A stretch of 64,000 bases of DNA from a plasmid. Each line of letters begins with the position of its first letter. Within the stretch, counting starts at the first letter, position 1. This document shows, piece after piece, positions 26,625 to 32,461 of this stretch. A program made the position numbers and the translations under genes. The notes under the pieces were generated by a model that saw only the letters and a program-made list of their open reading frames with translations, was not told where the DNA came from and ran no database searches. The stretch lies in sequence record NZ_CP014093.1; one strand, written 5' to 3'.

Positions 26625-26745
26625 ATAACGCTCTGTTAAGGTGTGAGCAACGCAATACCGATGCCGCCGCATACCACCCTAAACACTAAAACCAACGCAT
26701 AGTAAAAATGCCACGCGTTACGAATCACTCTTAAACGCTTTGTAT
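26625..26745 (-). repeat. attC truncated at its inverse-core end by the IS110-family insertion
   Basis: ataacgctctgttaaggtgtgagcaacgc...aaaaatgccacgcgttacgaatcactcttaaacgctttgt, then IS sequence instead of the usual gtttgttat. Confidence 0.75.
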
Positions 26746-27645
26746 GGATAATAAGTACTCCAATCGGGTAAGGTGAGACCCAGACTTTAGCTGCAACTAA
26801 AGTTCTTCTATCTGGTAGTTCGATTAAATGTTGGCTCCTCTATCGAGAGACCGGTAACAAGTACGAACGCCAGATAGAACTCCAAGCACCACACTCGAAT
26901 AGTCTTCTGGGTCTCGAGCCCGCATTTGCAAGCAAGAGTTAGCTTATTATGAATACAAACACACTTCAAAACATTAATGTCGGCGTTGATACTGGTAAGT
27001 CACAACTAGACATCTACATCCGCCCACTCGATATTCACTTCACTGTCCCGAACACAGAAAAAGGCATCAGCGATGCCATAAAAACCATTAAGAAACACAA
27101 ACCTCAACGTGTCGTCATCGAAGCTACAGGTCGATTAGAAATGCCTTTTATACTCGCCTGTGACAAAGCCAAATTACCTTATGTTATTGCCAACCCACTA
27201 CGTATTAAAAGGTTTGCTGGTGCCATTGGTCAACGAGCTAAGAACGACCGTTTAGATGCCGCTCTCATCGCACATTATGCCGAACGTGTTCAGCCAGAAC
27301 TGACCAAACTAAAAAGCGAAAACATACGTCTTATGAGTGACTTAGTCACAAGGCGTAACCAACTACTCACCATGCAAACCATGGAAAGAAACCGACTACA
27401 AATATTACCTAAGAATATCTCGTCTACGATTACCCTATCCTTACCGCCTTGAAAAATCAGATGGAAAAAGTAGAAGCAAAGATAGCGAAGCTGATTGAGA
27501 GCTGTCCTGAGTATCAAGCCAAAAATACTATTCTCCAAAGCATGCCTGGTGTTGGCAAAGTCCTTGCTGCCTCCCTAATTAGTAATGTACCCGAGCTGGG
27601 CTTTATCACTAACAAACAAGCTTCTTCTCTCATTGGTGTCGCACC
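26746..27645 (+). mobile_element. left part of an IS110-family (IS1111-attC-like) element inserted in an attC; interrupted at 27646 by an IS30-family element
   Basis: ~200-bp leader then an IS110-type DEDD transposase N-terminus; the element's other end lies inverted at 30403-30679. Confidence 0.65.
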
Positions 27646-27691
27646 CTTAGTATCAAGTTTGAAGTGCGACACTTTTTACAGATGCGCATGA
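26949..27691 (+). pseudogene. IS110-family transposase, N-terminal two thirds (one internal frameshift near 27445; truncated by IS30 at ~27646)
   Basis: VGVDTGKSQLDIYI...VVIEATGRLE...VIANPLRIKRFAG...AKNDRLDAALIA (DEDD domain), then SMPGVGKVLAASLISNVPELG (HhH region) in the next frame. Confidence 0.75.
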
Positions 27692-28745
27692 ATATACTCC
27701 GTTGGTGTCCTATACCCAAGTCTTTTGCGTGGGCGCGTATTTAATTTGTGTGCAATTTCATTGCAGAGCTTCTGTGTCACGTGTGACATAGAAGTTCGTT
27801 TTGGTAAGTATTGTCGTATCAAGCCATTGGTGTTTTCATTAGTCCCTCGCTCCCATGAGTGGTATGGATTTGCAAAGTAAAACAGACAGTTATGGTGTTT
27901 CTCTAGTTGTGCGTAACCATGAAATTCAGTGCTATTATCCGCAGTTATCGTCTTAAAAGGTAAGTCAGAGCGGGTCATGATTTTGCTCATTCTTACGTTG
28001 AGCGACTCGCTTGTTCTATCGTCCATTTGCCCAATAAAAGTGTAGCCAGTCATTCTGTCGACTAAAGTCACGATACAGTGCTTGGTTCCGCGGCCAACGA
28101 CGGTATCAATTTCCCAGTGACCAGGCTCTTTTCGATGCTCAGCTTTTGCAGGTCTTTCGGTAATATGGCGCTTTGTTGCTAGCCGCCCTCGGCTGTCTTT
28201 TGAGTTATACCTTTTACGTCTTTTCTTGGTGGATTGTCGTAGGTGTTTCCATAGTGTTCCACCGAGAGTTTTGTCGTTCCAAACATGCTGATAAATGAGC
28301 TCGTGACTCATTGTTGGGTAGCCTCTTACGTTTAGGTATCCGACGATTTGGTCAGGGCTCCAATCCAGTCTTAACAAGGCTTCAGGTAACCTAAAGTCGA
28401 TTTCGCTATAGCGCTTATTTCTGCGCGATCGGCTCAATCGGTTGCGAGCCATTTGTTGGGCTCTCCATGCCTGATAGGAGTACCTTTTAAAGTGTCTGTT
28501 ATATCGGGAGTTGCGTTCAATTTCTCGATAGATAGTGGCTTTGTGACGACCCAGTTGTTTAGCTATTTTAGCGGTACTAATTCCTTGCTTTCTGAGTGCA
28601 GAAATCATATACCTTTCGTTCTCAGTGAGGTGTGTGTATTTCATGTTTTTTACTTCTTGGCGGGAGCAAACTTCATGATTATCGCATCTCACTGTTTTTA
28701 TGTTCAGAGGTGTCGCACTTCGTACTTGAATCCAAGACACATAAC
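27646..28745 (-). mobile_element. IS30-family insertion sequence, copy 1 (~1.1 kb) with terminal inverted repeats
   Basis: identical to copy 2 at 30680-31776 in inverse orientation; ends ...caagtacgaagtgcgacac / gtgtcgcacttcaaacttga. Confidence 0.85.
27676..28644 (-). CDS. IS30-family DDE transposase (start taken at [12 protein letters not shown]; an upstream in-frame Met also exists)
   Basis: N-terminal HTH ([37 protein letters not shown]), DDE core (HWEIDTVVG...TADNSTEF...[19 protein letters not shown]). Confidence 0.85.
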   Translation of the reverse strand: MKYTHLTENERYMISALRKQGISTAKIAKQLGRHKATIYREIERNSRYNRHFKRYSYQAWRAQQMARNRLSRSRRNKRYSEIDFRLPEALLRLDWSPDQIVGYLNVRGYPTMSHELIYQHVWNDKTLGGTLWKHLRQSTKKRRKRYNSKDSRGRLATKRHITERPAKAEHRKEPGHWEIDTVVGRGTKHCIVTLVDRMTGYTFIGQMDDRTSESLNVRMSKIMTRSDLPFKTITADNSTEFHGYAQLEKHHNCLFYFANPYHSWERGTNENTNGLIRQYLPKRTSMSHVTQKLCNEIAHKLNTRPRKRLGYRTPTEYIHAHL

Positions 28746-28864
28746 AAACTGTTTAACAGTGATTCGCAACGCGTGGCATTTTTACTGTGCGTTGCTTTTA
28801 GTGTTTAAGGTGGTATGCGGAAGCATCGGTATTGCGTTGCTCACACCTTAACAGGGCGTTGTAC
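28741..28864 (+). repeat. attC in inverted orientation relative to the rest of the array (part of the IS30-bounded inverted segment)
   Basis: plus strand reads ataacaaactgtttaacagtgattcgcaacgcgtggcatttt...ctcacaccttaacagggcgttg, i.e. the reverse complement of the usual plus-strand form. Confidence 0.75.
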
Positions 28865-28885
28865 ACAATTATTGGAGTATGGAAT

Positions 28886-30402: not shown

Positions 30403-30679
30403 CAAGAGACTATGGCGTCAATAGTTAATTTTTGAGGCTATCTGTATCCCACATAACACCATCTCTTAGCATTGAATTTAAGATAACAACCATCTTTCTC
30501 ATGCAGGCAACAATGGCAACTTTTTTCGGTTTTCCTGCCGTAAGTAGTCGTTCATAAGTTGCTTTGAAAACAGGGTTGCATTGGATAGCCGACATCATCG
30601 CCATATACATAACGGTCCTAACTTGAGACCGCCCTCCTTGTATCAGCCGCTTACCTTTAAAGCGGCCACTTTCTCTTGT
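30403..30679 (-). mobile_element. right end of the IS110-family element including the C-terminal transposase fragment (30425..30679), now inverted relative to its left part
   Basis: minus-strand translation ...[76 protein letters not shown] matches the conserved C-terminus of IS110/IS1111 transposases; the first 98 residues of ORF 30425..30970 are antisense IS30 sequence. Confidence 0.65.
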
Positions 30680-31776
30680 TATGTGTCTTGGATTCAAGTA
30701 CGAAGTGCGACACCTCTGAACATAAAAACAGTGAGATGCGATAATCATGAAGTTTGCTCCCGCCAAGAAGTAAAAAACATGAAATACACACACCTCACTG
30801 AGAACGAAAGGTATATGATTTCTGCACTCAGAAAGCAAGGAATTAGTACCGCTAAAATAGCTAAACAACTGGGTCGTCACAAAGCCACTATCTATCGAGA
30901 AATTGAACGCAACTCCCGATATAACAGACACTTTAAAAGGTACTCCTATCAGGCATGGAGAGCCCAACAAATGGCTCGCAACCGATTGAGCCGATCGCGC
31001 AGAAATAAGCGCTATAGCGAAATCGACTTTAGGTTACCTGAAGCCTTGTTAAGACTGGATTGGAGCCCTGACCAAATCGTCGGATACCTAAACGTAAGAG
31101 GCTACCCAACAATGAGTCACGAGCTCATTTATCAGCATGTTTGGAACGACAAAACTCTCGGTGGAACACTATGGAAACACCTACGACAATCCACCAAGAA
31201 AAGACGTAAAAGGTATAACTCAAAAGACAGCCGAGGGCGGCTAGCAACAAAGCGCCATATTACCGAAAGACCTGCAAAAGCTGAGCATCGAAAAGAGCCT
31301 GGTCACTGGGAAATTGATACCGTCGTTGGCCGCGGAACCAAGCACTGTATCGTGACTTTAGTCGACAGAATGACTGGCTACACTTTTATTGGGCAAATGG
31401 ACGATAGAACAAGCGAGTCGCTCAACGTAAGAATGAGCAAAATCATGACCCGCTCTGACTTACCTTTTAAGACGATAACTGCGGATAATAGCACTGAATT
31501 TCATGGTTACGCACAACTAGAGAAACACCATAACTGTCTGTTTTACTTTGCAAATCCATACCACTCATGGGAGCGAGGGACTAATGAAAACACCAATGGC
31601 TTGATACGACAATACTTACCAAAACGAACTTCTATGTCACACGTGACACAGAAGCTCTGCAATGAAATTGCACACAAATTAAATACGCGCCCACGCAAAA
31701 GACTTGGGTATAGGACACCAACGGAGTATATTCATGCGCATCTGTAAAAAGTGTCGCACTTCAAACTTGATACTAA
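30680..31776 (+). mobile_element. IS30-family insertion sequence, copy 2 (inverted relative to copy 1)
   Basis: same termini and an identical transposase. Confidence 0.85.
30779..31747 (+). CDS. IS30-family DDE transposase (copy 2)
   Basis: protein identical to copy 1 from MKYTHL onward. Confidence 0.85.
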
Positions 31777-31820
31777 GCGTATTTATCATCCAAAGTTCAT
31801 AGATTTGGAAAGGTTTTCAT

Positions 31821-32333
31821 ATGTTTACACCAGATGAACTATCAGCTTACGCAACGAGTATAGCCGCCTTAGCCGCATTGCTATCTGCATTTGCGGCATT
31901 TAAAGCAAACAGTACCGCAAAAAGTGCAATCAAACTACAGCAACAACTAGAAAACAGTAAACTCAGTTTTATCAAACACCGAGAGAGCCTAAAATTACTT
32001 CAATCCATAATTTCATCTTTCGCTGAAATAGAAGCTCTCGCAAAATCAGAACGTTGTGACAAGAACAGACAAAGAATCGATGACGTCATTTCTCGGTTCC
32101 AAAGTAATATTGAAATACTAAAGGCGATCAACTCTGAAATTGGAGCCCTGATCTACAGCTGGGAAATTGAGCGTGAAGTGGGAAGCGACTCCATACCAAG
32201 AGTGGTTTACTACATAATAGGAAACCAACGTGCGATCATTGGCGATAACTACGATGAATTTTTCAAAGCAAAGAAACTTGAGCTAAGTAATATCCAAGAA
32301 CAACTGTTTAAATCCATCGCCAAGTTTGACTAA
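31821..32333 (+). CDS. hypothetical cassette protein (170 aa, N-terminal hydrophobic segment), encoded antisense to the array
   Basis: ORF only; stop 1-5 bp before the next attC. Confidence 0.4.
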   Translation: MFTPDELSAYATSIAALAALLSAFAAFKANSTAKSAIKLQQQLENSKLSFIKHRESLKLLQSIISSFAEIEALAKSERCDKNRQRIDDVISRFQSNIEILKAINSEIGALIYSWEIEREVGSDSIPRVVYYIIGNQRAIIGDNYDEFFKAKKLELSNIQEQLFKSIAKFD

Positions 32334-32338
32334 TACGT

Positions 32339-32461
32339 TTAACGCCCAGTTAAGGGGTGAAGCACGCCATGACCAAGCGACTGCATGGCACTTCAACACC
32401 GAAACCACCGCATACCAAAAATGCCACGCGTGCTGAATCCCTCTTAAACTGTTTGTTATGT
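32339..32461 (-). repeat. attC (VCR-like, 123 bp)
   Basis: ttaacgcccagttaaggggtgaagcacgcc...caaaaatgccacgcgtgctgaatccctcttaaactgtttgttatg; the minus strand starts ATAACAAACAGTTTAAGAGGG and ends CCCCTTAACTGGGCGTTAAAC, with 2 extra bases in the 5' arm. Confidence 0.85.

Follow-up and report, generated by a model that had tools for sequence, protein, structure and literature searches.

To our knowledge, the mobile elements that seek out the attC sites of integrons comprise the IS1111-attC insertion sequences (ISs) and the group IIC-attC introns. Here we analyzed a 64,000-nucleotide stretch of sequence record NZ_CP014093.1 (hereafter, the window), in which an array of attC sites is interrupted by an IS110-type element, the transposase gene of this element is in turn interrupted by an ISVa6-like element of the IS30 family, and the segment between two inverted ISVa6-like copies appears to have been flipped. 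The nesting of an IS30-family element in an IS110-family element in an attC had been proposed in a first-pass annotation made from the sequence alone, and it is borne out by the junctions described below.

The closest described relatives of the IS110-type element with regard to behavior are the members of the IS1111-attC group (ISPst6, ISKpn4 and ISPa21/ISPa25), which, in the account of Tetu & Holmes (2008) cited in PMC11187229, likewise encode DEDD transposases, insert at one position and in one orientation at one end of the attC, generate no duplication and disable the attC. The window element differs from that group in that its long non-coding region precedes the transposase gene, in that it lacks subterminal repeats and in that it targets the VCR (Vibrio cholerae repeat)-like attCs of Vibrio chromosomal integrons. 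With IS621/ISEc21, which are guided by a bridge or seek RNA, it shares the domain architecture, a structured upstream region with short matches to ends and target, and a TTGT core; it differs from them in that the integron attC inverse core is targeted and in that RNA guidance is presumed from sequence features. Group IIC-attC introns (PMC3001079) also colonize attC sites specifically, but they are retroelements that recognize the folded attC strand, an unrelated mechanism.

The IS30-family element of the window resembles ISVa6 from V. anguillarum NB10 (PMC4572688) and IS30 in its length (1,091 bp), 27-nt imperfect terminal repeats, a helix-turn-helix (HTH) plus rve transposase and a 3-bp duplication, whereas the attC-specific insertion of the window-type copies, at a fixed distance and in a fixed orientation, sets them apart from the ISVa6 description. 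Rearrangements of this kind are known: in the IS3 × IS3 re-inversion performed in V. cholerae (Richard et al. 2024, PMC11023631), part of an array was likewise inverted between embedded inverted IS copies, and cassette excision depended on the orientation relative to replication. That inversion was experimental and comprised 63% of the array, whereas the one in the window is natural, spans 1.95 kb with two cassettes and, unlike the former, owes its inverted geometry to a nested insertion into another attC-targeting IS.

Organization of the locus

The features of the locus are listed below in the order of their coordinates. Related loci in other genomes are designated by L numbers (L094 being an array that is IS-free at the corresponding positions), X, Y and Z denote ISVa6-like target sites, and a caret marks a cut point or IS boundary.

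26625-26743, minus strand: attC remnant without its inverse-core tip, a member of the ~120-nt repeat family, ending ...AAACGCTTTGT immediately before the ATGGAT of the IS110-type element
26744-27645, plus strand: 5' part of the IS110-type element, with the left end, a 205-nt non-coding region (26744-26948) and transposase codons 1 to ~232
27643-27645: ACC (GGT on the IS strand), right-end duplication copy at site X, cut exactly 5 nt after GTTA
27646-28736, minus strand: ISVa6-like copy 1, right end at 27646 and left end at 28736, transposase coding sequence at ~27676-28644
28737-28740: ACAC, cassette-side flank of attC_Z, in which ACA is the left-end copy of the 3-bp duplication of that site
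28741-28864, plus strand: attC_Z, whose counterpart in L094 belongs to the DUF7668 cassette, the one before the SduA cassette
28886-29530, plus strand: cassette open reading frame (ORF) of 214 aa, Shedu SduA_C (PF14082, E = 3.9e-12)
29526-29652, plus strand: attC of the SduA cassette, inverted relative to the array
29674-30402, plus strand: cassette ORF of 242 aa, stop codon TAA at 30400-30402
30403-30683, minus strand: 3' part of the IS110-type element, with the last ~86 codons, the stop codon and the 22-nt right end ...CCATAGTCTCTTG
30684-30686: TGT adjoining the left end of copy 2, forming with the G at 30683 a non-native GTGT (hybrid junction L2)
30687-31777, plus strand: ISVa6-like copy 2, transposase coding sequence at ~30779-31747
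31778-31780: CGT, right-end duplication copy left by an insertion at the attC that belonged to the 170-aa cassette (site Y) and is now gone
31781-32339, minus strand: body of the 170-aa cassette, with its ORF (31821-32333) on the plus strand, reversed within the cassette, and its own attC gone

The ISVa6-like element targets attC sites

Two IS30-family copies lie in inverted orientation, minus strand then plus strand, as the first-pass annotation had it; they occupy 27646-28736 and 30687-31777. Both are 1,091 bp long and identical at 1091/1091 positions, and no third ISVa6-like copy was found within the 64-kb window. Their transposase (322 aa) contains the Pfam domains HTH_38 and rve, as in DDE enzymes with an N-terminal HTH, and scored 276 bits against the NCBIfam IS30 model (NF033563; cutoff 80). 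The terminal inverted repeats are imperfect, 27 nt long with 81% identity, in line with the 20-30 bp expected for the IS30 family. Plasmid copies labelled 'ISVa6 family' by the Prokaryotic Genome Annotation Pipeline (PGAP) aligned with the window copies over exactly positions 1-1091, with 96.2% nucleotide and 98% amino-acid identity; the name ISVa6-like refers to this comparison with PGAP-labelled copies.

The 11 nt ahead of the left end, TTGTTATGTGT, are identical for the two copies, a coincidence with a chance of about 4^-11. That this common flank forms part of the IS was ruled out, since relatives match only over positions 1-1091 and have varying flanks.

IS30-family elements show marked target preferences, and the inverse-core sequence ahead of both left ends had been read in the first-pass annotation as a hint of one. 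We collected 76 related ISVa6-like loci from species-representative genomes (other Vibrionaceae), which yielded 39 distinct left flanks and 22 complete copies. GTTA was found at positions -9 to -6 in 31 of the 39 distinct flanks and TTGTTA at -11 to -6 in 28 of them, with a VCR-type attC consensus (GAATCACTCTTAAA...) upstream of the motif, so that the preference for the inverse core goes far beyond a hint. The plasmid copies showed the same pattern, no mirrored motif was found at the right ends among the related loci, and co-resident copies were co-oriented on the multi-copy contigs checked (OZ223344.1 and NZ_SZQJ01000013.1). Taken from these flanks, the left end is placed exactly 5 nt past GTTA, 2 nt outside the 7-bp inverse core and in a fixed orientation, an insertion that leaves the attC intact.

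A perfect 3-bp duplication, within the 2-3 bp expected for the IS30 family, flanked 11 of the 22 complete relatives, whereas the flanks of the two window copies are unpaired owing to rearrangement. That the other half of the copies had no matching duplications suggests that IS-mediated deletions or duplications may be frequent in Vibrio cassette arrays. Further, several ISVa6-like copies per genome, with the same attC left flank (GTTATGTTT) and different right flanks, were observed in L030, L035 and L036 (metagenome-assembled genome OZ223344.1) and others. In the full-text papers searched, we found no description of attC targeting by an IS30-family element or by ISVa6, nor does the description of ISVa6 contain one; strict attC targeting by an IS30-family element appears to be undescribed so far.

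The IS110-type element is inserted in an attC inverse core

The transposase gene of the IS110-type element begins at 26949 and breaks off after 27645, and its missing part runs from 30683 to 30403 on the minus strand, abutting copy 2. It had initially been allowed that these two fragments might belong to different elements. Joined after removal of 3 nt, they continue in frame (GVAP^ITRESG), and the resulting transposase is 99% identical to intact 318-aa proteins with a wide distribution in V. alginolyticus, V. diabolicus and V. parahaemolyticus. The layout given in the first-pass annotation is thus correct, with two of its limits corrected: the 3' part extends to 30683 instead of 30679, three more bases being of IS110 origin, and the attC remnant ends at 26743, not at 26745.

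The protein matched Pfam PF01548 (E = 3.9e-20) and PF02371 (E = 2.6e-20), a DEDD, RuvC-like domain pair common to IS1111 and IS110, and scored 209 bits against NCBIfam NF033542 (cutoff 140). Among solved structures, only the transposases of IS621 (E = 1.4e-29) and ISCro4 were matched. A long non-coding region downstream of the transposase gene has been used as a criterion for IS1111 (Siddiquee et al. 2024, PMC11187229). Here, the non-coding DNA comprises 205 nt upstream and 22 nt downstream of the gene, and no subterminal inverted repeats of at least 8 nt (one mismatch allowed) were found between the 71-nt left and 74-nt right end stretches, which included a few flank bases. Judged by the criteria of that study, the architecture is of the IS110 type and not of the IS1111 type; the earlier designation 'IS1111-attC-like' holds for the attC-targeting behavior but not for the architecture, given the 205-nt region upstream and the lack of subterminal repeats. 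The fold of the upstream region gave z = -3.15 against shuffled sequences, and 6-8-nt matches within it were detected to the left end, the right end and both target strands (TTAAA / TAACAA), while an Rfam search of this region for a bridge RNA returned no match. The region is consistent with a presumed bridge/seek RNA.

We gathered copies of the element from 17 distinct sites, where each of the 17 distinct left flanks ends in TTGT and each of the 16 distinct right flanks begins with TTA (TTGT^ATGGAT...CTCTTG^TTA). The left flank is an attC in 14 of the 17, and the other three share AAC-N2-3-(T)TTGT^TTA. As in the IS110 type, the element has no terminal inverted repeats and its insertion generates no target duplication: the flanks rebuild TTTGTTA with a 1-nt overlap, the core TTGT being present in both donor and target. 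As deduced from these junctions, the element inserts within the inverse core (RYYYAA^C), by which the attC is split and disabled.

The nested copy occupies an attC mimic

On its minus strand, the native IS110-type transposase gene reads CTTTCTCTTGTTAT(T/C)GGT^GCGACACC, that is, TTGTTA followed by 5 nt (also written CTCTTGTTAT(T/C)GGT^GCGAC). The right-end junction observed at copy 1 (GGTGCGAC; GGTGCGACACC) is the exact predicted canonical cut, with GGT as the target-site duplication (TSD). The nested hit is best described as an insertion that was targeted to a mimic of an attC. As this mimic lies on the opposite strand, the new ISVa6-like copy is inverted relative to the copies beside real attCs; this geometry, which would not normally arise in an array, makes inversion possible instead of deletion. 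An ISVa6-like element inside this IS110-type element was found in no other genome among the related loci.

The mimic, TCTCTTGTTAT (30672-30682, minus strand of the IS110-type element), is identical to the sequence that the right end of the element forms with the adjoining target (CTCTTG^TTAT; e.g., L004 at about 3470-3486). Within its transposase gene, the element thus carries its attR-like junction a second time, in inverted orientation.

We also observed a 10-nt exact match, GTGCGACACC, between the IS110-type element beside the insertion point (27634-27643) and the inner part of the left inverted repeat of the ISVa6-like element (e.g., 30704-30713). A rough post hoc estimate of its chance was 0.004, and it could reflect binding of the transposase at the target. 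A wider idea, that the attC flank mimics the IS30 terminal repeat, was not significant in local alignments, as shuffled sequences did as well in 709/2000 (right inverted repeat vs. attC) and 233/2000 cases (right inverted repeat vs. IS110 site). The positional coincidence between TTGATA-N5^ and TTGTTA-N5^ is all that is left of it, as an anecdote.

A third target site, a deletion and a hybrid junction

At site Z, L094 contains the DUF7668, SduA and 242-aa cassettes without an IS, and AAAACACATAAC represents the native flank at the junction. The IS-free orthologue of 28737-28740 in L094 reads AAAACACATAACAAACTG, and GTTATGTGT^ corresponds to the canonical spacing. Between attC_Z and the L094 attC, 3-4 differences were counted, the central region being identical. 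At site Y, the native junction GTTAAACGT^ATTTATC was present in 8 genomes (L111-L118), in which the cassette is 91% identical to the 170-aa cassette; the native site was taken from this homologue, since exact protein matches to the 170-aa cassette returned only contigs of the same clone.

The flank at 31778 (CGT ATTTATC) is the canonical junction at the attC of the 170-aa cassette, whereas the partner left end adjoins another attC (28741-28864, flank GTTATGTGT); this calls for a third ISVa6 site and for a deletion. The junctions indicate that at least three ISVa6 target sites have been used. In the history that they suggest, a deletion, through recombination of direct copies or adjacent deletion, would have removed the attC of the 170-aa cassette and at least a DUF7668-type cassette body. 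The earlier account of two insertions and one inversion is hence incomplete, both in this regard and with regard to the GTGT before copy 2, which is unlike the product of a simple insertion.

This left junction on the IS110 side reads ...TTGTTAT-GTGT^IS, compared to TGGT or CGGT expected from intact copies, and the same GTGT was present in L002. Of the 11 left-flank nucleotides shared by the two copies, 7 (TTGTTAT) are native here and 4 are non-native to the IS110-type element and equal the flank of the other copy. Accordingly paired, site X has GGT at the right end and the hybrid TGT at the left end, and the other pair comes from two different sites. Non-reciprocal flank co-conversion during IS × IS recombination would fit the GTGT, as would a replicative template switch at TTGTTAT.

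Several other sources were considered and rejected. Neither a simple insertion nor a crossover inside the IS produces GTGT, and a reciprocal crossover in the TTGTTAT microhomology predicts TGGT beside copy 1, which was not observed. A synonymous CCC variant in the window IS110 copy would reduce the hybrid to one mismatch, but CCG is present in the orthologous intact copy and CCA in 23 others. Carry-over of a circle-junction spacer would need a 1-nt loss and no duplication and hence does not fit. Finally, the 4.1-kb unit of IS30 copy, segment and IS30 copy is not a composite transposon, as its outer flanks (ACC/CGT) form no duplication and are natively non-contiguous.

The two flanks of the IS110-type element come from different attCs

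The first-pass annotation had placed the IS110-type element exactly at the attC of the 242-aa cassette. This was found to apply to the inverse-core TAA (30400-30402), which constitutes both the stop codon of that cassette and its retained attC tip (native L094 continues ...AAACCTAACAAAGCATTTAAG). It does not apply to the 119-nt remnant at 26625-26743, which differs from the attC carried by the 242-aa cassette in the IS-free array L094 and, over the 60-130 nt compared beside the element, equals the left flank of an intact copy, copy A, in L109/L110 (V. diabolicus). The right neighbour of copy A is a cassette other than the 242-aa one. In array order, with the cassette sense on the minus strand, the remnant precedes the AAA_33 cassette. 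A position between parts of two different attCs would imply an earlier IS110 × IS110 exchange or two separately hit copies.

The second of these options has a fuller form, which we consider distinctly improbable: the two IS110 fragments would stem from two copies, each hit independently at the same mimic and joined by several IS30 × IS30 exchanges, with no single nested element later split. The flank of the 5' part shared with copy A, whose right neighbour is another cassette, and the divergence of the remnant from the L094 attC would both follow from it, and so would the uneven similarity to copy A, from which the 5' part (26746-27645) shows 0/899 differences, save a 1-nt deletion, and the 3' part 3/281. 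The site specificity of ISVa6 permits repeat hits at one position, and half of the ISVa6 copies elsewhere have unpaired flanks. However, the 3' part is the commonest allele, identical to its counterpart in intact copies at 22 other loci, and the three differences are private to both copies in a single V. diabolicus genome, as though conversion had taken place within that genome. Moreover, the lack of any other genome in which an ISVa6-like element was found inside this IS110-type element speaks against repeated hits, and more events are needed than with an earlier IS110 × IS110 recombination, with the inversion still required.

The V. diabolicus locus in question, L110 (GCA_024748225.1, 9798-14416), harbors two intact IS110-type copies in direct orientation, 2.5 kb apart. 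Over the first 900 nt, 19 sites distinguish the two, whereas their last 281 nt are identical, with 3 private single-nucleotide polymorphisms (SNPs), a pattern that suggests gene conversion between them. The SNP distribution speaks neither clearly for nor clearly against a mosaic origin of the window element, as the three SNPs in the 3' part are private to that one comparison genome.

The segment between the ISVa6-like copies is inverted

The 1,950 bp between the two copies comprise two attCs and two cassette ORFs, all oriented opposite to the 13 other attCs of the window, which lie at 4670-5988, 24405-26743 and 32340-36484. The reversed orientation of the enclosed attCs and the location of both ORFs on the plus strand had been recognized in the first-pass annotation, with eleven other attCs instead of 13. 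In addition, GC skew was +0.07 within the segment compared to -0.12 and -0.13 in the flanking array, and together with the attC and ORF orientation it supports the inversion of the segment between the inverted IS30 copies that had been proposed.

A flip by the integron integrase (IntI), between opposed attC or secondary GTT sites, has next to no probability in our view. A core-site-like GTTAT does occur in both left flanks, but the breakpoints coincide with the ends of the IS30 copies and not with attC R' crossover points, all attCs would have been co-oriented beforehand, and IntI does not duplicate an IS.

Homologous recombination of the RecA type is the likeliest agent. The first-pass annotation had given it as the explanation; it is plausible, but one-step intramolecular transposition predicts the same junctions. 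In such an event, a single copy beside attC_Z would attack the pseudo-target in the IS110-type element, in a replicative manner or via an (IS30)2 dimer, and the second copy and the inversion would arise together, with no intermediate carrying two insertions. This course yields the exact topology, since each copy keeps one old junction (copy 1 that of its left end with attC_Z, copy 2 that of its right end with the 170-aa cassette) and gains one in the IS110-type element; it also places the new right-end junction at the canonical target position and saves one event. The GTGT could, we infer, have arisen if replication switched templates at the shared TTGTTAT. IS30 reportedly causes rearrangements of this kind, as is said of the work of Olasz and Kiss. 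On the other hand, the junction pairs are the same as those from homologous recombination, hence nothing favors the one-step course, and the TGGT or CGGT that it would leave at the new left junction is likewise unobserved. Recombination between identical 1.1-kb repeats is also expected at appreciable rates and has a direct precedent in the experimental IS × IS homologous inversion within a Vibrio integron array (PMC11023631). Overall, we regard one-step transposition as rather unlikely.

The structure is present in independent assemblies

The same junctions were found in the independent assemblies L001, L002, L095 and L090, which indicates that the structure is real. An assembly artefact, that is, a wrong path through two identical 1.1-kb repeats giving an apparent inversion, is very unlikely. 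The repeats are indeed identical, the window has indels of the long-read homopolymer type and most short-read contigs break at the IS; but contig L001, from another assembly, runs from the SduA/attC_Z flank through an entire IS30 copy into the IS110 5' part, and a 4.1-kb structure is readily spanned by long reads.

Assemblies of sister isolates include GCA_015782215.1, GCA_024748175.1 and GCA_024747095.1. The differences between sister contigs and the window amount to no more than 2 SNPs and three 1-nt homopolymer deletions. One SNP, at 28861 in the R' core of the inverted attC_Z, gives GTTGTAC in the window compared to GTTATAC in three sister assemblies and L094. The deletions, seen against the three sister assemblies, are located in G4/C4 runs at 27433, 26320 and 34494 and frameshift the genes for the IS110-type transposase, the AAA_33 cassette protein and a ParE-like protein, respectively. 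They look like long-read homopolymer errors rather than biology; the one near 27433, a C4 run that reads CCCC in sister assembly L001, is probably such a sequencing error.

Proposed history of the locus

We propose that targeted nesting was followed by inversion between the inverted copies, with one additional deletion, and we hold this history to be probable. The order of the events and the role of homologous recombination in them are what we infer, whereas the data above show the anatomy, the two target specificities, the mimic site and the existence of three ISVa6 sites. The setting would be part of a sedentary chromosomal integron of a Vibrio of the Harveyi clade, colonized by two unrelated attC-seeking ISs. 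An IS110-type element of ~1,184 bp (DEDD) inserts as TTTGT^TA in the inverse core (R'') of VCR-like attCs, one copy having come to lie between the 242-aa cassette and the attC remnant. The ISVa6-like element (DDE) inserts 5 nt past GTTA, in a fixed orientation and with a 3-bp duplication, so that array copies are normally co-oriented. One copy would then have entered TCTCTTGTTAT on the opposite strand of the IS110-type transposase gene (TSD GGT), breaking the transposase and becoming uniquely inverted compared to the copy beside a real attC about 2 kb away. Recombination between these identical inverted copies would have flipped a 1,950-bp segment that carries attC_Z, the SduA cassette with the attC belonging to it, the 242-aa cassette and the 3' part of the IS110-type element. 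In a separate step, an ISVa6-mediated deletion would have joined attC_Z to the body of the 170-aa cassette.

Several observations weigh against this history. The GTGT junction requires an extra step, either flank co-conversion or template switching, and the duplications pair uncleanly, with TGT at both left flanks and GGT and CGT at the right flanks. The flanks of the IS110-type element stem from two different attCs. No uninverted allele was found, as every contig with the exact ISVa6-like transposase has the inverted junctions, and homologous recombination and transposase-driven intramolecular inversion predict the same junction pairs.

Integron context and neighbouring genes

The window contains 15 attC-like repeats, co-oriented outside the inverted segment, along with short promoterless ORFs, toxin-antitoxin cassettes and stop codons within TAAC. 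No integron integrase was found among the window ORFs examined; the intI gene presumably lies outside the window, and the related loci L008 and L115 have intI-like genes beside such arrays. The pair of SduA and 242-aa cassettes is also present, IS-free, in L094, and the 242-aa protein had no Pfam match.

Between 5988 and 24405, the array is without attCs for ~18 kb, in which genes for an ArsP permease, an aconitase, NhaA and Band 7 proteins and a group II intron are located. The intron occupies 20745-22892 on the minus strand (Rfam domain V/VI at 20745-20821 and D1-D4 at 22708-22845), and two ORFs (21749-22231 and 20855-21733) make up its split reverse transcriptase/maturase. Its 5' exon ends in a hairpin (GAAACGCATGACACGTTTC), as in group IIC introns. 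Just past the attCs at 4670-5988, a TnpB-type protein of 392 aa is encoded at 6382-7560 on the minus strand, with OrfB_IS605 and Cas12f1-like TNB domains. The attC array ends at ~36.5 kb, and the genes to its right (181, 253, 348 and 256 aa, with Phage_base_V, and a Fic protein) are common to V. diabolicus L110.

Implications for integron biology

The C-terminal nuclease domain of Shedu SduA is tied to anti-phage defence. The SduA cassette lies between two intact co-oriented attCs and should therefore remain excisable. Chromosomal integrons have all their attCs in one orientation with respect to replication, which keeps cassette excision low (PMC11023631). Assuming the usual orientation of the remaining array, the partial inversion would set the attC pair of the SduA cassette in the high-excision orientation (PMC11023631), and it also creates attC pairs that would invert DNA instead of excising it.

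An attC-specific IS is normally co-oriented with the array and would thus give rise to deletions only, with which the unpaired flanks of half of the ISVa6-like copies are consistent. We tentatively suggest, as a possibility that falls somewhat short of even odds, that ISVa6-type IS30-family elements form an unrecognized class of attC-specific DDE ISs that could ride on cassettes and drive deletions; together with a mimic-bearing IS110-type element, they would create a rare inverted pair, whereby part of the array flips and excision rates change.

If this is true, strict attC targeting by an IS30-family DDE transposase would represent a new kind of integron parasite, TTGTTA(N5) would provide a simple sequence rule for a target-specific DDE transposase, and the IS110-type element would be a natural RNA-guided recombinase aimed at attC. 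What is noteworthy, then, is the attC targeting by an IS30-family element, the IS110-type attC-seeker and the combination of the two, which would yield an invertible segment in a chromosomal integron.

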